Sequence record: KM657822
Length of the DNA: 64,000 nt
Direction: 5' to 3' (one strand)
Origin: Escherichia phage vB_EcoM-VpaE1
Shown here: positions 12,059 to 63,814 of the stretch, in pieces
Layout of the letters: every line of letters begins with the position of its first letter
How positions within the stretch are numbered: position 1 is the stretch's first letter
Made by a program: the position numbers and the translations under genes
Notes under the pieces: generated by a model
What the model was told of the DNA's origin: nothing
The model's input: only the letters and a program-made list of their open reading frames with translations
The model's database searches: none

Positions 12059-13165
12059 ATGTTGACTAATTCTGAAAAAAGCAGATTTTTCCTTGCTGAC
12101 CTGACTGGTGAAGTCCAGTCTATCCCAAATACTTATGGGTATATTTCCAACTTAGGTCTGTTCCGTTCAGCACCAATCACCCAAACTACTTTCCTTATGG
12201 ACTTGACTGATTGGGATGTTAGCTTGCTTGATGCGGTAGACCGTGATAGCCGTAAAGCAGAGACTAGCGCACCTGAGCGTGTTCGTCAAATTAGCTTCCC
12301 AATGATGTATTTCAAAGAAGTTGAAAGCATCACTCCTGATGAGATTCAGGGTGTACGTCAGCCAGGCACTGCAAACGAACTGACTACTGAAGCTGTAGTA
12401 CGTGCTAAGAAGCTGATGAAGATTCGTACCAAGTTCGATATTACTCGTGAGTTCCTGTTTATGCAAGCTCTGAAGGGTAAAGTTGTCGATGCTCGTGGTA
12501 CTCTGTACGCTGACCTGTACAAGCAGTTCGACGTTGAGAAGAAGACTGTTTACTTCGACCTTGACAATCCTAATGCTGACATCGATGCTTCTATCGAAGA
12601 ACTGCGTATGCACATGGAAGACGAAGCTAAGACTGGCACTGTAATCAACGGTGAAGAAATTCACGTAGTTGTTGACCGTGTATTCTTCAGCAAACTGGTT
12701 AAGCATCCTAAGATTCGTGACGCTTATCTTGCACAGCAGACTCCGCTGGCTTGGCAACAGATTACTGGTTCTCTGAGAACTGGTGGTACTGACGGCGTTC
12801 AGGCTCATATGAACACCTTCTACTACGGTGGTGTTAAGTTTGTCCAGTACAACGGTAAGTTCAAAGACAAGCGTGGTAAGGTTCACACTCTGGTGAGCAT
12901 TGATAGTGTAGCAGCAACTGTTGGTGTTGGTCATGCCTTCCCTAACGTATCTATGCTGGGTGAAGCTAACAACATCTTCGAAGTGGCATATGGCCCATGT
13001 CCTAAGATGGGTTATGCAAATACACTTGGTCAGGAACTGTACGTATTTGAATACGAAAAAGACCGTGACGAAGGTATTGACTTCGAAGCTCACTCTTACA
13101 TGCTGCCATACTGCACTCGTCCTCAGTTGCTGGTAGATGTTCGCGCTGACGCTAAAGGTGGCTAA
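12059..13165 (+). CDS. major capsid protein (lambda gpE-like)
   Basis: 368 aa after protease and decoration genes; strongly biased codon usage. Confidence 0.65.
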   Translation: MLTNSEKSRFFLADLTGEVQSIPNTYGYISNLGLFRSAPITQTTFLMDLTDWDVSLLDAVDRDSRKAETSAPERVRQISFPMMYFKEVESITPDEIQGVRQPGTANELTTEAVVRAKKLMKIRTKFDITREFLFMQALKGKVVDARGTLYADLYKQFDVEKKTVYFDLDNPNADIDASIEELRMHMEDEAKTGTVINGEEIHVVVDRVFFSKLVKHPKIRDAYLAQQTPLAWQQITGSLRTGGTDGVQAHMNTFYYGGVKFVQYNGKFKDKRGKVHTLVSIDSVAATVGVGHAFPNVSMLGEANNIFEVAYGPCPKMGYANTLGQELYVFEYEKDRDEGIDFEAHSYMLPYCTRPQLLVDVRADAKGG

Positions 13166-46456: not shown

Positions 46457-47503
46457 ATGGAGAAGTACACATTAACAAAGCTTCCCGATTCAGTTACACA
46501 TGTCTTTATTGACTCTGACAGTATTGCCTATAAAGGTGCTTGTGTAGTTGAGAAAGCAAAATATAAATACGTCAATAAACTCACAGCAGAAGAATCTGAA
46601 CCATTTGATAATGCAAAAGATGCTGCAAGATGGTTAGCAGACCAGAGAATCCTTGTGGAAGAACTTGGCCTGACATTTGATGAAGATGAATGGGAAAGAC
46701 AGACTTGGAAAGAAGCTAAGAGTGAAAAAGAAGCTATCATGGCTACTCAACAGGTTCTTCAGGAATGGCTTAAGGTGGTTGGTAAAGAGAGAACTTGGGT
46801 AGGTTATTTAACAGAGAAAGGTGTACATAAGCATAAAGACATTAAAGGTCTTGAGCACCAATATCAAGGTAACCGCAAAGATGCTGTCACACCAACACAC
46901 TTAGTTGCTTGTCGCGAGTATCTTCTGTCAAGACCAGAGTTCAAATTGATTCTTGATGGATTTGAAGCTGACTCTATCGTTATTGCTAAAGCTGAAAAAA
47001 TGGGAAAAAAGGCTGCCTTAATGAGTATTGATAAAGACCTTCGCCAAGCTGAAGGGACTTACTGCATTGATATGACCTATGAAAAGTCACCTTTGATTTT
47101 CATTGCTGACAACAACGTAGGTGAAATTTGGGATTGCCCAATAAAATCGACACCAAAAGCTAAGAAGACAGTTGGGGTAGGTTTTAAATTTCTTTGCTAT
47201 CAAGCCGTGGCTGGTGATAATGCGGATAATTATTTTGGCTTAAAGGGTGTTGGCAAGGTTACTATAATGAAAGCCCTTGAGGGTAAAACTACTTACAAAG
47301 AGTGTCTTGATGCAATTTATGAGCTTTATGCTAAGAAAGAGTCATACACTTATGTCTCGTGGGATGGTCAAACAATTACCAGAACACCTTTAGAGTTAAT
47401 GCAGCAACACTTTTTCTTAGCTTATCAGGAAAGAAACAAGAAAGACGATTTCACTTTTGATAAGTATGGGTGGACACCAAATGTTAACTCAACAAACTCT
47501 TAA
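46457..47503 (+). CDS. 5'-3' exonuclease / flap endonuclease (T4 RNase H-like)
   Basis: N-terminal acidic cluster VFIDSDSIAY, central SIDKDLRQ, helix-hairpin-helix-like AGDNADNYFGLKGVG. Confidence 0.6.
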   Translation: MEKYTLTKLPDSVTHVFIDSDSIAYKGACVVEKAKYKYVNKLTAEESEPFDNAKDAARWLADQRILVEELGLTFDEDEWERQTWKEAKSEKEAIMATQQVLQEWLKVVGKERTWVGYLTEKGVHKHKDIKGLEHQYQGNRKDAVTPTHLVACREYLLSRPEFKLILDGFEADSIVIAKAEKMGKKAALMSIDKDLRQAEGTYCIDMTYEKSPLIFIADNNVGEIWDCPIKSTPKAKKTVGVGFKFLCYQAVAGDNADNYFGLKGVGKVTIMKALEGKTTYKECLDAIYELYAKKESYTYVSWDGQTITRTPLELMQQHFFLAYQERNKKDDFTFDKYGWTPNVNSTNS

Positions 47504-47972
47504 AGAATACCTGCACTATGACCCCGAAACAGGGGTCTTTACTTGGATTAAGAAGTCTGCTAGACACACAAAAATTGGCTCTGTTGCAGGTACAAACTTA
47601 AGAGGGTACACCAGAATTTATTTGTTTGGTAAGGGCTATTATGCACATACCCTAGCTGTTCTGTATATGGATGGATACCTACCTGAGTGTGTTGACCATA
47701 AAAATCATGTAACACTAGACAATCGCTGGGTAAATCTTAGGGCATGTACGTTATCAGAGAACCAATGTAATAGGTTGCTCAATAAGAACAATAAATCAGG
47801 TGTTAAGGGTGTGTACTACAAAAAACAGTATGGTAAGTGGTCTACACAGATAACTTTTAAGAAGAGGGTTTACTTCTTCGGCTACTATGACACTATTGAT
47901 GAAGCAGCAGAGGTTGTAAATAGGGAACGCCAACGTTTACACAAAGAGTTTGCTAATAAAGGTGATGAATGA
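47457..47972 (+). CDS. HNH homing endonuclease with AP2-like domain
   Basis: HNH core CVDHKNHVTLDNRWVNLR...ENQCN then AP2-like SGVKGVYYKKQYGKWSTQITF. Confidence 0.7.
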   Translation: MISMGGHQMLTQQTLKEYLHYDPETGVFTWIKKSARHTKIGSVAGTNLRGYTRIYLFGKGYYAHTLAVLYMDGYLPECVDHKNHVTLDNRWVNLRACTLSENQCNRLLNKNNKSGVKGVYYKKQYGKWSTQITFKKRVYFFGYYDTIDEAAEVVNRERQRLHKEFANKGDE

Positions 47973-48469
47973 GAAAAATAAAAGGTTTTGGCAATTGCCC
48001 TGAATATGGACATTGGGTTTCACTATGTGGTGAAGTTGACCCAGCAAAGCACTTTGGTTTTGTCTACCTAGTGTACTGCAAAAAGACTGGACAGTACTAT
48101 TTGGGTAAGAAACAGCTTAATAGTGTGACCAAAAGAAAAGTTGCTGGCAAGACTCGGAAGAAGGTAGTCACTAAGGAAAGTGATTGGATGACTTATGAGA
48201 CTTCTTCTGAGTATATTAAAAAAGATATTGAGAGCTTTGGAAAAGAATTTTTTGACTTTTACATTATTCAGACCTACTACACAAAAGGTGGCCTAGTTTA
48301 TGGTGAAGCAAACCTTCAACATAAGTTCGATGTAATGACAAAAAGGATTGACTCGAAGCTCAGACTCTTCTACAATGCCAATATTGCAGCAATTAAGTTT
48401 ATTACTAAAGAAACTTATGAAGATGCTGAAAAAAGAATCCATAAGGTAATGAAAGCAAATTGTGCTTGA
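47969..48469 (+). CDS. hypothetical protein, possible GIY-YIG-like nuclease
   Basis: GFVYLVYCKKTGQYYLGKK loosely fits the GIY...YIG spacing; weak. Confidence 0.3.
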   Translation: MRKIKGFGNCPEYGHWVSLCGEVDPAKHFGFVYLVYCKKTGQYYLGKKQLNSVTKRKVAGKTRKKVVTKESDWMTYETSSEYIKKDIESFGKEFFDFYIIQTYYTKGGLVYGEANLQHKFDVMTKRIDSKLRLFYNANIAAIKFITKETYEDAEKRIHKVMKANCA

Positions 48470-54252: not shown

Positions 54253-56397
54253 ATGAACAAAGTACAGATTATTAAAAAGAACGGCTCACTTGAAGAACCT
54301 GATATCAAAAAAGTTTTAGCAGCAGTAGCTAAGTCAGCTAACAGGGTTGGATATAAAGAACTTCCACCAGATGTTACCCAAGCTCTTGAGTCAGCATTCA
54401 TGAGGATTTTGGTAAAGTCCACTAAGCAGAATAATTTGCTTATCTCGGTAAATGATATTCACAGTATTGTTGAAGGTGCTTTGGCAGAAGTTAATCACGA
54501 GATTTATGAGTCTTACTCAACATACAGAAATTACCGTAAAGAGGTTGCTCAAAATTGGGATGAACTCTACCAGAAGACTAAAGATACACTCTTCTTAGGT
54601 GACCGTGAAAATGCTAACTTTGACAGCAGTTTAATTTCTACGAAAGGTTCAATTATCCGTGGTTACCTGACTAAAGAAATCTTTAAACAGTATCATCTAA
54701 CACCAGAGGAACTTGAAGCCATTGAGAAAGGCTTTATCTATATCCACGATTTGAGAGACCTGATTTTTGGTGGTATTAACTGTTGCCTGTTTGACATTGG
54801 TAAAGTACTAAAAGGTGGCTTTGAAATGTCCGGCATTGAGTACTGTGAACCTAAATCTGTACTGTCAGCGTTGCAGGTTATTGGTGACGTAGTACTCTCA
54901 GCAACTGCACAGCAATTTGGTGGTTTTACTTTAGCAGAGATTGATAAGGTACTTGTACCGTATGCTAAGAAGTCTCTACGCTATCATGCTGAGAAAGCAT
55001 CATCTTATGGTATTCCTAAAGAGCATTACCACAATTATGTAATGGAGCAGTTACAAATTGAACTGACGCAAGGTTTTCAGTCACTTGAGATGAAACTAAA
55101 TACCGTACCTTGTAGCCGTGGTGATTTTGCATTCACAACTTTAACATTTGGTTTACTTGACTCAGATATGTCTAATGAGGATAATCGACTACAATACATG
55201 ATTGCAAGTACTCTCCTAGATGTTCGTATGAATGGACAAGGTAAGAGCAAAAAGCCTGTTGTATTCCCTAAACTGGTTTATATTTATGACCAGAAGAGAC
55301 ATGATGAGAATATCTGTCAAGGTCACCTGTACAGTAAAGCTATTGAGTGTTGCTCTAAAGCAATGTACCCAGATTTCTTAAGTGTGTCTGGTCATGGTGC
55401 TGTAGCAGAGGCTTTTGAGCGTTCTGGTAAGGTAATTTCACCGATGGGTTGCAGAGCTTTCTTATCCCCATATCTTAACGAGAATGGAGAAGAGTTCTAC
55501 GTTGGTCGTGCTAATATTGGTGCTGTATCTTTGAACTTACCAATGATTTACCAGTATTCTAAAGAGAATGGTTTAGATTTCTGGAAAGAGCTTGATAAGT
55601 ACCTAGAAATGATTCGCAGCTTCCATAAGAAACGTTACGAAATGATTGCCAATATGCCAGCAAGTTCTAACCCTCTTGCATTCACACAAGGTGGTCTGTA
55701 TAAAGGGACTAAGAAGCCTACTAACAAGGTTGGTTGGGATATTGTGAAGTCCTTCACAGCTTCTTTTGGGGTTACTGCTCTTGATGAGTTATCTGTTCTT
55801 GCTGAAGGTAAACGACTTCATGAAGTTGGAAGTTCTAGTTTTGCATACGATGTTCTGGCATACATTAACATGAAAACTGAAGAGTTTAAGAATGAAGATG
55901 GCTTCCTGTATGCAGTATATGGCACTCCAGCAGAGTCATTGTGTGGAACTCAGCTAAAACAGTTCAGAGATATGTTTGGTGTTATTAAAGGCGTTTCTGA
56001 CAAGGAATACTTTACAAACAGTTTCCATATGAATGTTGCAGCAAACATCTCACCATTTGAGAAGCAGGACTTAGAAGAGCCATTCTTCCATATCTGTAGA
56101 GGTGGCAGAATCCAGTATGTAAGGGTAGCTAACCCAGAAAACTTACCAGCACTTAAAAGTTGTATTACAAGAGGGATGTTGAAAGGTTTCTATCAGGGGC
56201 TTAACTTTGACTTAGCAATCTGTGAACATTGTGGTAACAGACCAAAGGCTGATGTTGAAGAATGTGAGGTTTGCCATTCACATGATATCTCTGTGATTAA
56301 CAGGGTGTGCGGGTACTTGTCATTCACAAAAATTAAAGGTCAGTCTCGAATGAATGACGCTAAGATGGCAGAAATTAAGGATAGGGTTTCTATGTAG
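54253..56397 (+). CDS. nrdD: anaerobic ribonucleoside-triphosphate reductase
   Basis: C-terminal Zn cluster CEHCGN...CEVC and glycyl-radical RVCGY near C-terminus. Confidence 0.85.
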   Translation: MNKVQIIKKNGSLEEPDIKKVLAAVAKSANRVGYKELPPDVTQALESAFMRILVKSTKQNNLLISVNDIHSIVEGALAEVNHEIYESYSTYRNYRKEVAQNWDELYQKTKDTLFLGDRENANFDSSLISTKGSIIRGYLTKEIFKQYHLTPEELEAIEKGFIYIHDLRDLIFGGINCCLFDIGKVLKGGFEMSGIEYCEPKSVLSALQVIGDVVLSATAQQFGGFTLAEIDKVLVPYAKKSLRYHAEKASSYGIPKEHYHNYVMEQLQIELTQGFQSLEMKLNTVPCSRGDFAFTTLTFGLLDSDMSNEDNRLQYMIASTLLDVRMNGQGKSKKPVVFPKLVYIYDQKRHDENICQGHLYSKAIECCSKAMYPDFLSVSGHGAVAEAFERSGKVISPMGCRAFLSPYLNENGEEFYVGRANIGAVSLNLPMIYQYSKENGLDFWKELDKYLEMIRSFHKKRYEMIANMPASSNPLAFTQGGLYKGTKKPTNKVGWDIVKSFTASFGVTALDELSVLAEGKRLHEVGSSSFAYDVLAYINMKTEEFKNEDGFLYAVYGTPAESLCGTQLKQFRDMFGVIKGVSDKEYFTNSFHMNVAANISPFEKQDLEEPFFHICRGGRIQYVRVANPENLPALKSCITRGMLKGFYQGLNFDLAICEHCGNRPKADVEECEVCHSHDISVINRVCGYLSFTKIKGQSRMNDAKMAEIKDRVSM

Positions 56398-56426: not shown

Positions 56427-56963
56427 ATGCAATTATTAAGAAGGCACATTCTGAAAGGGGGTGTGCCTCTTACATACTACAAATGTCAAGGTAAGGGTTA
56501 TGAAAGACACCATATCATACCAGTGTGTCTAGGTGGCGATAAAATTAGTGGAGATAATATTGCTCTACTTACACCTAGAGAACATTATATAGCTCATAAA
56601 TTACTGGTTAAGATGTATCCAAACAACCACAAGTTATGGTTTGCATGGAACAGGCTAGCTCATGATGGCCTAGATAGGAAAATATCATCCAGAGACTATG
56701 AAAAGGTAAGGGCTTTGAACTCGAAAGCTTTATCTATTGTGAATAAAGGTAGGGTTTTCACTGAAGAACATCGAAGACGATTAGGAGAATCTCAAATAGG
56801 TAATACAAAATCAAAAGGTTGTAAAAGGTCTATAGAAACAAGGAAGAGGATGTCAGAAGCCGGAAAAAAGCCAAAGAAAAAGAAAACTTGCCCTCATTGT
56901 GGTATGACTGGTGGTGCTGGTAACATGACTCGATATCATTTTGACAATTGTAAGAAAAAATAA
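56427..56963 (+). CDS. HNH homing endonuclease with NUMOD3-like repeats
   Basis: ERHHIIPVCLGGDKISGDN HNH core; FTEEHRRRLGESQIG and SIETRKRMSEAG repeats; C-terminal CPHCG. Confidence 0.65.
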   Translation: MQLLRRHILKGGVPLTYYKCQGKGYERHHIIPVCLGGDKISGDNIALLTPREHYIAHKLLVKMYPNNHKLWFAWNRLAHDGLDRKISSRDYEKVRALNSKALSIVNKGRVFTEEHRRRLGESQIGNTKSKGCKRSIETRKRMSEAGKKPKKKKTCPHCGMTGGAGNMTRYHFDNCKKK

Positions 56964-59398: not shown

Positions 59399-59410
59399 AC
59401 AGATACTATA

Positions 59411-59440
59411 AGGGAACTGTAAAGGTTCCCTTTTTATTTT
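59411..59440 (+). terminator. rho-independent terminator
   Basis: AGGGAAC-tgtaaa-GGTTCCC followed by TTTTTATTTT. Confidence 0.55.
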
Positions 59441-59449
59441 GGAGATGAT

Positions 59450-59965
59450 ATGTATCTGTCAAACCTGAAACGTTCGGCTGCAATGTCAGTTCTAAGACTC
59501 AGCTTTGAGGAACGTCAAGAGTTCATTGACTCCCACCAATACGACCCTTCTAACTCGAATCACATGGTTCTTTGGAATCGTGATAACTTCCGTGAAAGAG
59601 CACTTGTCCGTTATTACCCACACTACACAATAGATAACCTGTATGAATGGTGTGTTGTGAAGAACACTATTGCAACACTGAACAATCTTTGCAGGTATAC
59701 AGGTAAGCAAACATTTACATTAGGCCACCACAAACCCGTTACAAAGGGTGGTGAGCATCACTGTGCAAACTGGTTTATCCAGACTAAACTTGATAACCAG
59801 AAGCAAGGAGATAACCTTCTAAGCACCCCTAAGATGACCTATGAAGAGCAAGAGATATATATCAAAAATAATATGCCAGATGTGCTTGACAACCACTATA
59901 CAGATTTGGCAATATCTCTCCTGTTGAAGTTCGAGACAGTTTATAGGGCAACTTACAATGGCTAA
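59450..59965 (+). CDS. hypothetical protein, possible HNH-like nuclease
   Basis: LGHHKPVTKGGEHHCANW resembles an HNH-type His/Cys cluster; weak. Confidence 0.3.
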   Translation: MYLSNLKRSAAMSVLRLSFEERQEFIDSHQYDPSNSNHMVLWNRDNFRERALVRYYPHYTIDNLYEWCVVKNTIATLNNLCRYTGKQTFTLGHHKPVTKGGEHHCANWFIQTKLDNQKQGDNLLSTPKMTYEEQEIYIKNNMPDVLDNHYTDLAISLLLKFETVYRATYNG

Positions 59966-60236
59966 AGAGAAGTGGGAAATCCTACCATTAGTGAGTGAAG
60001 GTGGTAACGGTTGTGAGATGTACATGATACGTGGTCATGTCCCAGAACCAATTGCACTTGAGATGGTAAACAATTTTACAGATGGTTCTTACAAAGACTT
60101 GGGAGAGCCAACTATAAAGCATCAATGGGTAAAGCCTGTACCAGACAGCACAGGTAACTGTAGTGTACTTTACCACGTTGTAGACCCTGTAAAATGCAAA
60201 TCTGCAATGGCAGTAACAAACGTAACTTTTGATTGA
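59958..60236 (+). CDS. hypothetical protein
   Basis: 92 aa ORF. Confidence 0.3.
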   Translation: MAKEKWEILPLVSEGGNGCEMYMIRGHVPEPIALEMVNNFTDGSYKDLGEPTIKHQWVKPVPDSTGNCSVLYHVVDPVKCKSAMAVTNVTFD

Positions 60237-60247
60237 GAGAGAAAACT

Positions 60248-61129
60248 ATGAAAACATCTATCCGTGTTACAGTTCATTCACCAACTAAAGGGACTCATGA
60301 AGAAGAGTTTAACATCGTCCAATTTCCTTCTGGTGAGATTGGTGGACATTTTTCACCAGAGTTTGTTGATTTTACTGCTTATGCTGCATCATCCATCAAC
60401 AACGTGATTATGATTGTAAAGGGTTATGACAAAGACACATTATTTGCTGTGGCACTTGCTAAAGAGGCAATTGATGATTTAGTACCTCATAAGTTTGCTA
60501 TGAAGACTGCTATCTTTTACTATTTGCCAAATGCACGTTACGACCGTCACATGTTTAAAGGTGATGCAGCAGCTTTGAAAGTGTTTGCACAACAGGTTAA
60601 TGCAATGGGTTTTGATGCAGTCTGTGCAGTTGACCCTCATAGTTACGTTCCAGATAACCTTTTCAACTGCTTCCAGAGTATTCCTCAAAAGGAAATTGCA
60701 GTCCACTATGCAAATGACCCACTGATTGATTACTTAGTAGCCCCAGATGCAGGTGCTGCTAAGAAGATTGCAGAGACTGCTAAAGAGGTGGATAAACCAT
60801 ACATCACAATGTCTAAAGTGCGTAACCTTAAGACTGGTGAAATTACTAGTATGCGAATCCTTGATGATGTTGATTTGACAGATAAAACCGTCATGATTCT
60901 TGATGATATCTGTGATGGTGGTCGAACTTTCGTAGAGGCAGCTAAACACCTACGTGAAGCAGGTGCAAAACGTGTTGAGCTTTATGTAACACATGGTATC
61001 TTCTCTAAAGGTGTTGAAAACCTTCTTGACAACGGTATCGACCATATTTACACTACAAATTCTTTAGGCGAAGCTAAAGACCGTGGCTTAACACATTATG
61101 GTCAAGTTACTGTAGCAAACATTGATTAG
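60248..61129 (+). CDS. prs: ribose-phosphate pyrophosphokinase (PRPP synthetase)
   Basis: PRPP-binding loop ILDDICDGGRT, VAPDAGAAKK and THGIFS motifs; start ATG 60248. Confidence 0.7.
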   Translation: MKTSIRVTVHSPTKGTHEEEFNIVQFPSGEIGGHFSPEFVDFTAYAASSINNVIMIVKGYDKDTLFAVALAKEAIDDLVPHKFAMKTAIFYYLPNARYDRHMFKGDAAALKVFAQQVNAMGFDAVCAVDPHSYVPDNLFNCFQSIPQKEIAVHYANDPLIDYLVAPDAGAAKKIAETAKEVDKPYITMSKVRNLKTGEITSMRILDDVDLTDKTVMILDDICDGGRTFVEAAKHLREAGAKRVELYVTHGIFSKGVENLLDNGIDHIYTTNSLGEAKDRGLTHYGQVTVANID

Positions 61130-61137
61130 GTAACAGT

Positions 61138-61629
61138 ATGAATAAGGGTTATTTTGAAAGATACCTAATATATGAACCAGATACAGGTTTATTAATTTGG
61201 AGAGTAACCCTTTGCAGTACCGCTATTGCTGGTAATGTGGCTGGCACAAGGTCTAAGAAGGGTTATATCCAAGTCCAGATAAATAAGAAGAGGTACTATG
61301 CACATAATATTGCATGGATTATGTCTGGAGGTGAGATACCAAGTGGATATGAGATAGACCACATAGACCTTGATAAATCTAATAATAAGTTGGAGAATTT
61401 AAGACTTAGCACAAAGTCACAAAATCAGAGGAATAGGGGTATATACAAGAATAATAAAACTGGTGTGAAGGGTGTAAGTTTTTGTAAACAAACAGGTCTT
61501 TACAAAGCAAGAGTCATGCTTTACCATAAAGAATACTTTTGTGGAAGATTTAAAACGGTAGAAGAAGCAAAAGAAGCTGTAATTAAAAAGCGAATAGAAC
61601 TTCATGGTGAGTTTGCAAGACATAACTAA
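61138..61629 (+). CDS. HNH homing endonuclease with AP2-like domain
   Basis: YEIDHIDLDKSNNKLENLR...SQNQRN HNH core then AP2-like TGVKGVSFCKQTGLYKARV; paralog of the 47457 gene. Confidence 0.7.
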   Translation: MNKGYFERYLIYEPDTGLLIWRVTLCSTAIAGNVAGTRSKKGYIQVQINKKRYYAHNIAWIMSGGEIPSGYEIDHIDLDKSNNKLENLRLSTKSQNQRNRGIYKNNKTGVKGVSFCKQTGLYKARVMLYHKEYFCGRFKTVEEAKEAVIKKRIELHGEFARHN

Positions 61630-61643
61630 GAGAGAGATAAAAT

Positions 61644-63425
61644 ATGAGTAAGTCACTTTACGCAGTACCAGCAGGTCTTAATGCAGATGCTTACAAGGCA
61701 TCACATATATATCAGTATCCAGATGCTACGCAATATCTTATGTTCAACCTGACACCACGTAGCGACAAATGGTTTAACAGCCCTTTGGCAATTGACGGTG
61801 TAGTGGCTTTTGGTATTCAACGTTTCGTTAAAGATTACTTGATAGACCATTGGAATGCCACCTTCTTTGAACGTGATAAAAAAGAAGCAATTGACGAAAT
61901 CTTAGAAGTCATGAATGGTGTTTTGGGTAAAGATGCTATCGGTCGAGAGCATTGGGAAGCACTTCACGACTTAGGTTATCTACCAGTTGAAGTATACGCT
62001 GTAGAAGAAGGCACAGTTGTTCCGATGCGTGTCCCGATGATTGTCTTTCAGAACACTGTTTCAGGTTTCCATTGGGTAGCAGGTTATCTGGAAGATGCTT
62101 TCTCTGCTGAGATTTGGAAGGCTTGCACCATTGCGACTATTGCATTGCATTACAAACGCATCTGTAAGAAGTGGGCTGACCTTACTTGTGACAACGACTT
62201 ACATCTACCTTATCAGTGCCATGACTTTGCTATGCGTGGTATGTCCGGCTTTACCGATGACGCATTTAACGCTGTAGGTCACTTAATCAGCTTTAAAGGA
62301 ACTGATAGCTTCCCTGCTGTGTATACGGCTAAACGAATCTATGGACAGTCTTACCCAATCTCTGATATTGGTAGCTCTGTACCAGCCACTGAACACTCTG
62401 TAATGTGTGCAAACATTGCTTGGGAAGGCGGTAACGAATTGATTGAAGAAGAAAGACGTTTTAAAGGTGAGTTGCAAACCTTCCGTCGTTTCTTAACAGA
62501 AACTTACCCAACTGGTATTGCAAGCATTGTTTCAGATACTTATAACTTCTGGAGAACTGTGTCAGAAATCTTACCAGCACTCCGTAAAGAAATTATGGAA
62601 CGTGATGGTAAACTGGTAATTCGCCCTGACTCTGGAGACCCTGTACATATTGTCACAGGTTATAAAGCAATCCACTTAGAGTGTGCTAAGAAGGCTTATT
62701 ACGAACACCTAAGCAAGCTGGAGGCAAGTGATACAATGCTGAACTCTGTCCTGAACATGAAGCTTGAAAACATTAACTATGGTATTGCTGGATGGCTACT
62801 GTCAGAAGGCTACGAAATGGTTGTTGACAGAGAAGACTTTGAAGTTGCTGATACAGTACTGCTGAAGAATGCTTATATGGTTGGTTCTGCAAACGTTGTA
62901 ACACGTCCTGTAGCGGAGATTGATGGAGCTATTAAGACGCTGTACAACATCTTTGGGGGAACTGTTAACTCTAAAGGGTTTAAGGTACTGGATGAGCACA
63001 TCGGCCTTATCTATGGTGACTCTATCACACTGGAACGTGCAAACGAAATCCTGAAGCGTCTGTATGAAATGGGTTTTGCAAGCTCTAACGTAGTGTTTGG
63101 CGTAGGTTCTTACACTTACCAGTACATGACTCGTGACACCTTTGCATTTGCTGTCAAAGCAACTCTTGCAAGCATTGGTGGTAAAGAGATTATGCTTGCA
63201 AAAGACCCTAAAACAGATAGTGGTGTTAAGAAATCTGCCTTTGGTGGTGTAGCACCTATGTGGGATGGGGATAAGCTGAAAGCTGTAGATGGCTATGGAT
63301 TCCAGAGTTTTGCAGATGCACTTGACCACCCAGCTTGTGCTTTACGTTTAGTCTTTAGCGACTCTGAGCAGTTCGGTTACACAACTCTTGGTGATATTCG
63401 AAATAATATTGACAAGCAGCTTTAA
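61644..63425 (+). CDS. nadV: nicotinamide phosphoribosyltransferase (NAMPT/NadV-like)
   Basis: HLISFKGTDSFPAVY and SSVPATEHSV match recalled NAMPT-family signatures (NFKGTDT, VPAAEHS). Confidence 0.75.
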   Translation: MSKSLYAVPAGLNADAYKASHIYQYPDATQYLMFNLTPRSDKWFNSPLAIDGVVAFGIQRFVKDYLIDHWNATFFERDKKEAIDEILEVMNGVLGKDAIGREHWEALHDLGYLPVEVYAVEEGTVVPMRVPMIVFQNTVSGFHWVAGYLEDAFSAEIWKACTIATIALHYKRICKKWADLTCDNDLHLPYQCHDFAMRGMSGFTDDAFNAVGHLISFKGTDSFPAVYTAKRIYGQSYPISDIGSSVPATEHSVMCANIAWEGGNELIEEERRFKGELQTFRRFLTETYPTGIASIVSDTYNFWRTVSEILPALRKEIMERDGKLVIRPDSGDPVHIVTGYKAIHLECAKKAYYEHLSKLEASDTMLNSVLNMKLENINYGIAGWLLSEGYEMVVDREDFEVADTVLLKNAYMVGSANVVTRPVAEIDGAIKTLYNIFGGTVNSKGFKVLDEHIGLIYGDSITLERANEILKRLYEMGFASSNVVFGVGSYTYQYMTRDTFAFAVKATLASIGGKEIMLAKDPKTDSGVKKSAFGGVAPMWDGDKLKAVDGYGFQSFADALDHPACALRLVFSDSEQFGYTTLGDIRNNIDKQL

Positions 63426-63439
63426 AAGTATATGATAAG

Positions 63440-63462
63440 AGGCTCCTACGGGAGCCTTTTTA
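63440..63462 (+). terminator. rho-independent terminator
   Basis: GAGGCTCC-tacg-GGAGCCT followed by TTTTT; same stem as the 29866 terminator. Confidence 0.55.
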
Positions 63463-63478: not shown

Positions 63479-63814
63479 ATGAAAATCAAAGAGATGAACA
63501 TTAACGTTGTCCTAGAAGAACGTTGGGAAAACATTAAGAAACCTGAAGATGGTAAAAAGTTCCTTAACAAAATTTTAGTAGCAGCTAAAGAAGAACTGAC
63601 TGGCAAGATTGCAGCAGCAATCACAATAAAAGTCTGTGTAAAAGGTCTTCCACAACATCACCAATTTGCACTTGACGAGTTTAAAGAAAGCTTCTACAAT
63701 CCAAACAAACAGATACTTGAAAGTAACTTTGCAGTGTCTACAAGTATCGTCCATGACAGAAGCTTTATCCTTTACAAAAACATGAGAGGTGAGTCATGCA
63801 AGCATATTGGATAG
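63479..63814 (+). CDS. hypothetical protein
   Basis: 111 aa ORF. Confidence 0.4.
   Translation: MKIKEMNINVVLEERWENIKKPEDGKKFLNKILVAAKEELTGKIAAAITIKVCVKGLPQHHQFALDEFKESFYNPNKQILESNFAVSTSIVHDRSFILYKNMRGESCKHIG

Follow-up and report, generated by a model that had tools for sequence, protein, structure and literature searches.

The adps–namat locus

We analysed a stretch of 64,000 nucleotides (nt) of Escherichia phage vB_EcoM-VpaE1 (KM657822), called the window below, with positions counted from its first letter. The locus of interest consists of a gene for a protein resembling the phosphoribosyl pyrophosphate (PRPP) synthetase Prs, a gene for a protein resembling the nicotinamide phosphoribosyltransferase NAMPT, and an HNH endonuclease gene between them. 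The outer two genes are designated here adps and namat. This locus very probably represents NARP1, an already known pathway in which the enzymes Adps and Namat restore nicotinamide adenine dinucleotide (NAD+). The original prediction, made from the letters of the window, described a NAD salvage pair split by an HNH insertion, which would make nicotinamide mononucleotide (NMN) from nicotinamide and ribose-5-phosphate by way of PRPP and could counter NAD-depleting host defences. The gene families, the insertion and the anti-defence idea have held up; the PRPP/NMN chemistry, and a forecast that an NMN adenylyltransferase (NMNAT) would lie just beyond the window, have not.

The two outer open reading frames (ORFs) are separated by ~506–514 nt, and the HNH ORF is the sole gene in this gap (Table 1). 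An alternative in-frame TTG start of adps at 60233 overlaps the stop of the upstream ORF; the start annotated in relatives is the ATG at 60248. The Shine-Dalgarno-like run GAGAGAGA lies 5' of both adps and namat.

A megablast search with the locus matched 257 phage records, nearly all of them Felixounavirus or other Ounavirinae infecting Escherichia, Salmonella, Shigella and Citrobacter, and the top ones (Salmonella phages Si3, PMBT20, Mushroom and others) have ~97% DNA identity. Judged by these matches, the window is a Felixounavirus genome with ~97% DNA identity to Salmonella phage Si3. The gene neighbourhood fits this genus: adps and namat are placed just downstream of nrdA/B, nrdD and nrdG, several homing endonuclease genes are present, and rIIA/rIIB follow downstream in relatives. 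Escherichia phage Bas63 (JohannRWettstein, MZ501086) is also a Felixounavirus, and its genes 79–80 are the operon in which NARP1 was discovered (bioRxiv 10.1101/2024.02.11.579819).

Table 1. Features of the adps–namat locus and its surroundings in the window
Feature	Position	Strand	Remarks
Prs-like gene adps	60248–61129	+	293 amino acids (aa) from ATG; intact ORF
HNH ORF	61138–61629	+	163 aa, 492 nt, intact; between adps and namat
NAMPT-like gene namat	61644–63425	+	593 aa; intact ORF
Selectivity-clamp loop (SCL) of Namat, aa 37–52	61752–61799	+	TPRSDKWFNSPLAIDG; contains TPRSDKWF
Inserted Namat subdomain, ~75 aa, aa ~351–427	62694–62924	+	lineage-specific, confidently folded alpha/beta unit
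Selectivity-clamp helix motif (SCH) of Namat, aa 488–498	63105–63137	+	GSYTYQYMTRD; adenine clamp
Two conserved upstream ORFs, 171 aa (phrog_3500) and 92 aa (phrog_4726)	59450–60236	+	possibly co-transcribed
Terminator-like hairpin and T-run	63437–63460	+	AAGAGGCTCCTACGGGAGCCTTTT then TAATTT; 10 pairs, 5 G-C; directly 3' of namat
Terminator-like hairpin	59410–59432		just upstream of the ORF at 59450

The adps product probably belongs to the phage Adps clade

Profile searches for the Prs and NAPRTase/NAMPT families, which had been proposed as a check on the two genes, matched both far beyond chance at the family level, and the catalytic residues are present. The adps product matches the Pfam families Pribosyltran (PF00156, E 9.9e-12) and Pribosyl_synth (PF14572, E 1.5e-9) and the family phrog_619 (E 3.9e-98). 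Its match to TIGR01251 (E 3.2e-36, 124.8 bits) is slightly over the cut-off of 113, and every NCBIfam cut-off for Prs equivalogs is missed by a wide margin (for example, 93.5 vs 297). In tblastn comparisons, the Adps of Vibrio phage ICP1 scores 119 bits, whereas E. coli Prs scores 66 bits. The protein is equal in length to Bas63_0079 and shares 81% aa identity with it.

The catalytic and acceptor residues R97, H131, D167, K190, D219, D220 and D223 align with R87, H121, D161, K185, D212, D213 and D216 of ICP1 Adps, K190 being the lysine of the catalytic beta-hairpin. The PP-loop reads DDICDGGRTF in the window and DDICDGAASF in ICP1 (C215–S220, the type shared by Adps homologues), in contrast to DDMIDTGGTL in E. 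coli Prs; C222 and F228 are common to the window and ICP1 proteins, and positions 225–226 differ. With 293 aa the window protein is 22 residues shorter than E. coli Prs (315 aa), and its C-terminal region is mostly gaps in the alignment. This short C-terminus is consistent with the published loss of the alpha11–alpha12 regulatory and filament module.

Near the 5' end of adps, positions 60248–60520 are divergent from 12747–13020 of the Bas63 sequence (L008 in our comparison), whereas identity is 90–97% in the genes upstream, in the 3' half of adps and in namat. As judged from these alignments, the N-terminal domain of Adps falls into two strongly divergent allele classes in Felixounaviruses, and the gene is a recombination mosaic. 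Si3 and Mushroom carry the same allele as the window, their N-terminal stretches printed in a published supplementary table being identical to that of the window protein. In these supplementary tables the Adps of both phages is marked 'Yes' for association with Namat and their Namat is marked 'Adps-associated' (bioRxiv 10.1101/2024.02.11.579819).

The adps product can be placed in the phage Adps clade, and not among cellular Prs enzymes, because it scores higher against ICP1 Adps than against Prs, fails the Prs equivalog cut-offs, is 81% identical to its Bas63 counterpart and belongs to an allele that is already in the published Adps table. By analogy with these homologues, from which its substrate preference is taken, it would be an ADP-ribose pyrophosphate synthetase, the first enzyme of NARP1.

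The namat product has the adenine clamp of Namat enzymes

The namat product matches NAPRTase (E 1.1e-34), NAMPT_N (E 8.9e-6), NF006629 (E 1.7e-141) and phrog_448 (E 1.2e-202), and it is 98% identical in aa sequence, and equal in length, to Bas63_0080. Among solved structures, the crystal structures of SpbetaL1 Namat (9w5w/9w5x) are its top matches, with 436 bits by sequence. An AlphaFold2 model of the protein has a mean local confidence (pLDDT) of 92.8 and a global one (pTM) of 0.91. Foldseek with this model again found 9w5w/9w5x best (E 1e-52; TMt 0.95 for 9w5x), followed by NadV and mammalian NAMPT.

The residues that contact nicotinamide or NMN are kept: D15, Y17, F195, R198, D221, A248, H251 (within PATEHS), R327, D329, G458, D459, G488, S489 and R497. 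They cover the core set that we tested from the SpbetaL1 enzyme (D13', Y15', F189, R192, D215, the PATEHS histidine, R306 and D308). By HMMER alignment to 9w5x, there are just two changes among the contact residues, S190 to A196 and A362 to S460, and both are conservative.

What distinguishes Namat from true Nampts is the clamp around the adenine. True Nampts differ from the window protein at the SCH site: it reads GAQTYQRNTRD in H. ducreyi NadV (9ke8) and GGALLQKVDRD in Xanthomonas Nampt, without the aromatic clamp residues. The identity of 9ke8 is from its Foldseek description, and no paper on this entry was found. A Namat-type motif, with F or Y as its third residue and Y, F or M as its seventh, occurs at this site in all 120 of the 120 best database homologues, which include chromosomal enterobacterial proteins of ~496 aa. 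For the SCL, an arginine, or a lysine or tyrosine followed by a stacking residue, was taken as diagnostic. K42 of the window protein aligns with R40 of SpbetaL1 Namat and is followed by W43, and the whole stretch is identical in Bas63. According to the published rule, a lysine at the third position of the loop means that the next residue stacks on adenine, as in Bas63. In addition, an Adps-clade gene is found no more than 10 genes away from namat. These features argue that namat encodes a nicotinamide ADP-ribose transferase, the second enzyme of NARP1. The choice of ADP-ribose pyrophosphate (ADPR-PP) in preference to PRPP and the direct formation of NAD+ would carry over to it from the SpbetaL1 enzyme.

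Many proteins of ~496 aa that are annotated 'nicotinate phosphoribosyltransferase' have the clamp motif GS[FY]TYQYNTRD at this site, and many of these are encoded in genomes or contigs that bear the names Klebsiella, Cronobacter, Kluyvera, Phytobacter and Kosakonia. From the motif they are probably bacterial NARP1 Namat enzymes, not nicotinate phosphoribosyltransferases, in line with the reported occurrence of bacterial NARP1 (PMC12774641).

Lineage-specific insertions in Namat

The window Namat contains two insertions. The larger one, the subdomain of ~75 aa listed in Table 1, has a pLDDT of 92–97 within the full AlphaFold2 model and of 85.6 when modelled alone. SpbetaL1 Namat, HdNadV and Xanthomonas Nampt lack it, as do the Namat-like proteins of 495–500 aa, many of which come from enterobacterial genomes. 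A tblastn search with aa 345–430 matched 252 records only, nearly all of them with the names of enterobacterial phages and ~85–90 kb long (Ounavirinae-type). No structural relative of aa 351–427 could be detected, and the paper on the Namat structure (PMC12774641) makes no mention of the subdomain in its main text. The second insertion (aa 258–272) has a length of ~15–35 aa and follows the MCAN motif. Both are found in Namat of Ounavirinae-type phages.

It is conceivable, if rather unlikely, that the subdomain adds a function that the SpbetaL1 enzyme does not have (regulation, for instance, or the channelling of substrate from Adps, or escape from a host inhibitor), and that the N-terminal alleles of Adps likewise bear the mark of an arms race, here with a host factor directed against Adps. 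The subdomain and the Adps allele classes leave the interpretation of the locus unchanged.

The HNH gene is a probable homing endonuclease

The product of the gene between adps and namat matches Pfam HNH_3 (E 1.7e-19, 69.6 bits) and phrog_99 (E 2.9e-68), and has a weak match to an AP2-like DNA-binding domain (E 4.5e-4). Sixty phage records contain it, compared with ~257 that have the adps–namat region. Si3 and Mushroom, the nearest relatives of the window, have it; Bas63 and phage mio do not, and mio carries the adps allele of the window (98.3% aa identity). Comparison of the junctions indicates that GTAACAGT and the 492-nt ORF stand in place of a 29-nt spacer, AAGTTTATAGGGGCTTGAAAGCCCCATTTT, and that the ribosome-binding site of namat is intact. 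The DNA of the HNH gene is 100% identical to the Si3 copy, next to a namat that is 94–98% identical, and a paralogue with 39% identity lies at 47457–47972 of the window. Because of the presence/absence polymorphism, the defined junctions, the complete identity with Si3 and the paralogue, the gene is regarded as a mobile homing endonuclease and not as an accessory enzyme. It is a free-standing, polymorphic element outside the pathway, with a predicted cleavage activity, and would be a selfish gene that landed by chance in the adps–namat spacer.

The 29-nt spacer that was replaced is a GC hairpin with a T-run. Relatives without the HNH gene have, between adps and namat, a GC-rich hairpin and after it a T-run, GGGGCTTGAAAGCCCCATTTT (3883–3911 of comparison sequence L014 and 13629–13660 of L008; the replacement in the window covers 61130–61629). 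This element resembles a terminator or attenuator within the NARP1 operon, and phages that have the HNH gene, the present one included, have lost it.

Loss of the native spacer and the distance that now separates the two genes raise the question of whether the insertion uncouples or attenuates namat expression, so that NARP1 would be impaired and decaying in this phage. We consider this very unlikely. Both adps and namat are intact as ORFs, namat retains its ribosome-binding site GAGAGAGA, and a promoter/terminator scan found no terminator-like site with a convincing stem between the two genes. Furthermore, 60 sequenced phages retain the arrangement, with 94–98% conservation of namat, which argues for continued selection.

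The window contains at least four homing-endonuclease-like genes, at 47457, 47969, 56427 and 61138. The gene at 56427–56963, directly downstream of nrdD, encodes an endonuclease of 178 aa that has a NUMOD3 motif and weakly matches a colicin/pyocin DNase domain. The nrdD gene itself (54253–56397) is one uninterrupted ORF of 714 aa, whereas an element bearing a homing endonuclease gene divides it in Si3 and Bas63.

Proposed restoration of NAD+ by Adps and Namat

The proposed mechanism is as follows. NADases of host defence systems such as SIR2-HerA, DSR1/2, type I Thoeris and SEFIR split NAD+ into ADP-ribose and nicotinamide. Adps would then move the beta-gamma pyrophosphate of ATP to the free ribose of ADP-ribose, giving ADPR-PP, and Namat would exchange the pyrophosphate of ADPR-PP for nicotinamide, giving NAD+ in one step. 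Such a route would have no NMN intermediate and no need for an NMN adenylyltransferase.

The chemistry and the anti-defence phenotype are drawn from published work on orthologues and homologues, and the allele pair of the window would be expected to behave identically. Deletion of genes 79–80 in Bas63 causes a ~20-fold loss of plating on SIR2-HerA, and NAD+ is no longer sustained; this loss does not depend on pncC or nadR of the host (bioRxiv 10.1101/2024.02.11.579819). This sensitisation bears out the suggestion that the pair counters NAD-depleting defences. In untargeted metabolomics, ADPR-PP appeared only when the defence system and Bas63 genes 79–80 were both present (bioRxiv 10.1101/2024.02.11.579819). 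With purified SpbetaL1 proteins, Adps converted ADP-ribose and ATP to ADPR-PP, and Namat converted ADPR-PP and nicotinamide to NAD+. NAD+ was also formed in vitro from ADP-ribose, ATP and nicotinamide (bioRxiv 10.1101/2024.02.11.579819). ICP1 Adps has likewise been shown to pyrophosphorylate ADP-ribose and not ribose-5-phosphate. Structures have been reported for SpbetaL1 Namat (PDB 9w5w, 9w5x; PMC12774641) and for ICP1 Adps (PMC13586617).

These data conflict with the canonical salvage route, in which, by the logic of NARP2, Prs makes PRPP, Nampt makes NMN, and an NMN adenylyltransferase of the phage or the host completes NAD+. Pfam, NCBIfam and GenBank all label the two genes as PRPP synthetase and NAMPT, as such a route would require. 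Yet the Prs test with SpbetaL1 Adps yielded no product, and NAD+ was the sole product of SpbetaL1 Namat when PRPP and ADPR-PP were offered together (bioRxiv 10.1101/2024.02.11.579819). In the window itself, the NAMPT-like protein bears the clamp motif of Namat and not that of Nampt, the Prs-like protein falls below the Prs equivalog thresholds, and no NMNAT homologue was found in the window, in Bas63 or in the Si3 segment. For the Bas63 orthologue, whose operon makes ADPR-PP, canonical salvage is already largely refuted, and for the window we give it very little credence. The sequence ribose-5-phosphate to PRPP to NMN, as first proposed for these genes, does not find support.

The location of the genes suggests another possibility. 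They lie in a block of nucleotide metabolism genes (nrdAB, nrdDG and deoxynucleoside monophosphate kinase), where a Prs-like enzyme might supply PRPP for purine and pyrimidine synthesis and the NAMPT-like gene might be an unrelated auxiliary metabolic gene. This is hardly credible in view of three observations. A Namat homologue is close by in 97% of Adps-clade genes and almost never near bacterial prs (bioRxiv 10.1101/2024.02.11.579819), deletion of the pair in Bas63 leads to a plating and growth defect that is specific to the defence, and ADPR-PP is seen only with an active NADase system.

A few points weigh against assigning the locus to NARP1. The in vitro data come from the SpbetaL1 and ICP1 homologues and not from Bas63-type proteins, because Bas63 Adps purified poorly, and Namat can still form NMN from PRPP in vitro, with lower activity. 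Over its first 270 nt, adps is only 58–68% identical to Bas63. Two adenine-contact residues of ICP1 Adps line up with other residues in the window protein, F18 (which is contributed by the neighbouring protomer) with H17 and F92 with M102, with F103 adjacent; the N-terminal alignment is unreliable here, and a Prs-like QFPSGE (F26) lies near this adenine-contact region. Finally, there is the HNH insertion, with its possible bearing on namat expression. With these points considered, we still hold with high confidence that the locus is NARP1.

Search for an NMN adenylyltransferase

NARP1 would not require an NMNAT, and none was found where one had been anticipated. In Si3, mio and Bas63, the genes downstream of namat are two or three small ORFs followed by rIIA (and then by rIIB in Si3 and Bas63); in the window, the ORF at 63479 has no Pfam match. 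The window, the whole of the Bas63 genome and 43 kb of Si3 were searched by tblastn: there was no match to E. coli NadR at E up to 10, and E. coli NadD had chance-level matches only (E ≥0.4). Neither the complete Bas63 annotation nor that of the Si3 region lists an NMNAT.

NadR-like matches were obtained in 773 phage records. A spread sample of 25 of these consisted mostly of enterobacterial phages of 111–117 kb and Vibrio phages, with a few other large phages, and none of the 25 was a Felixounavirus-sized record of ~85–90 kb. The sampled enterobacterial records of 111–117 kb fit NARP3, the pair of PnuC and a NadR-like protein described from phage Bas30.

One annotation in a close relative was considered and rejected. 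The 'NAD synthetase' of Si3 (gp061, RefSeq) has its window homologue at 47969–48469, which is a SegE-type GIY-YIG endonuclease (PF19835, 94 bits); the name is a misannotation unrelated to NAD and could mislead surveys of NAD pathways.

Flanking genes and transcription

The two ORFs upstream of adps are possibly co-transcribed with it, which does not imply a role in the pathway; deletion of Bas63 genes 79–80 alone was enough to sensitise the phage (bioRxiv 10.1101/2024.02.11.579819). Neither ORF (starts at 59450 and 59958) has a Pfam match or a Macro or RyR domain. The 171-aa ORF, 59450–59965, is the second gene upstream of adps. It weakly matches an HNH-endonuclease-like PHROG (7e-6), contains an HH...N motif and is possibly an HNH protein that has degenerated or diverged. 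No accessory gene with a Macro domain (Adpp, an ADPR-1P phosphatase) or a RyR domain (RyDEP, a glycosidase) was found by Pfam among the neighbouring ORFs at 59450, 59958 and 63479.

The hairpin directly 3' of namat is the probable 3' end of the transcription unit, as a match to the terminator consensus. The boundaries of the operon are suggestive at most, because in the promoter/terminator scan of the region the site counts did not exceed those of shuffled controls.

Implications

NARP1 allows a phage, with two enzymes and ATP, to reverse the NAD+ depletion caused by many unrelated bacterial immune systems. The window adds nothing new to this pathway: it has the same system, in the same genus, as the discovery, and near relatives of its allele have been catalogued. 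It does call for caution in annotation. The labels PRPP synthetase and NAMPT suggest an NMN route that lacks its NMNAT, whereas the established chemistry needs no third enzyme. The phage is predicted to be sensitive to NAD+ phosphorolysis of the aRES type because the neighbouring ORFs have no Macro (Adpp) or RyR domain. For the curation of phage-therapy genomes, the locus would predict resistance to NADases of the SIR2, DSR and Thoeris types, but not to aRES-type phosphorolysis.

Comparison with known systems

NARP2, exemplified by the Nampt and bifunctional Nmnat of Vibrio phage KVP40, and NadV share with the window a homologous, nicotinamide-using protein of the Nampt fold and the same anti-NADase purpose. 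NARP2 differs in that PRPP is the donor, NMN is the intermediate and Nmnat is required; no Nmnat was found at the window locus. The NARP1-AP operon (Adps, the Macro-domain phosphatase Adpp and Namat) and the RyDEP operons resemble the window in having an extra gene between or beside the core pair. That gene encodes a Macro- or RyR-domain enzyme in these operons and an HNH endonuclease in the window.

SpbetaL1 Namat and ICP1 Adps are like the window proteins in fold, catalytic residues, adenine clamp motif and PP-loop. SpbetaL1 Namat (491 aa) is ~47% identical to the window protein, has neither of its insertions and stacks via R40, in contrast to K42–W43 of the window. ICP1 Adps is 34–40% identical to the window Adps, and its residues F18, F92 and F223 are not conserved position for position in the alignment.

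NARP1 of Bas63 differs from the window in two respects: it has a 45-nt spacer containing the hairpin where the window has the HNH gene, and it has the other allele class of the Adps N-terminal domain. It is the same as the window in genus, flanking genes, protein lengths (293 and 593 aa), clamp loop and helix, and both Namat insertions.

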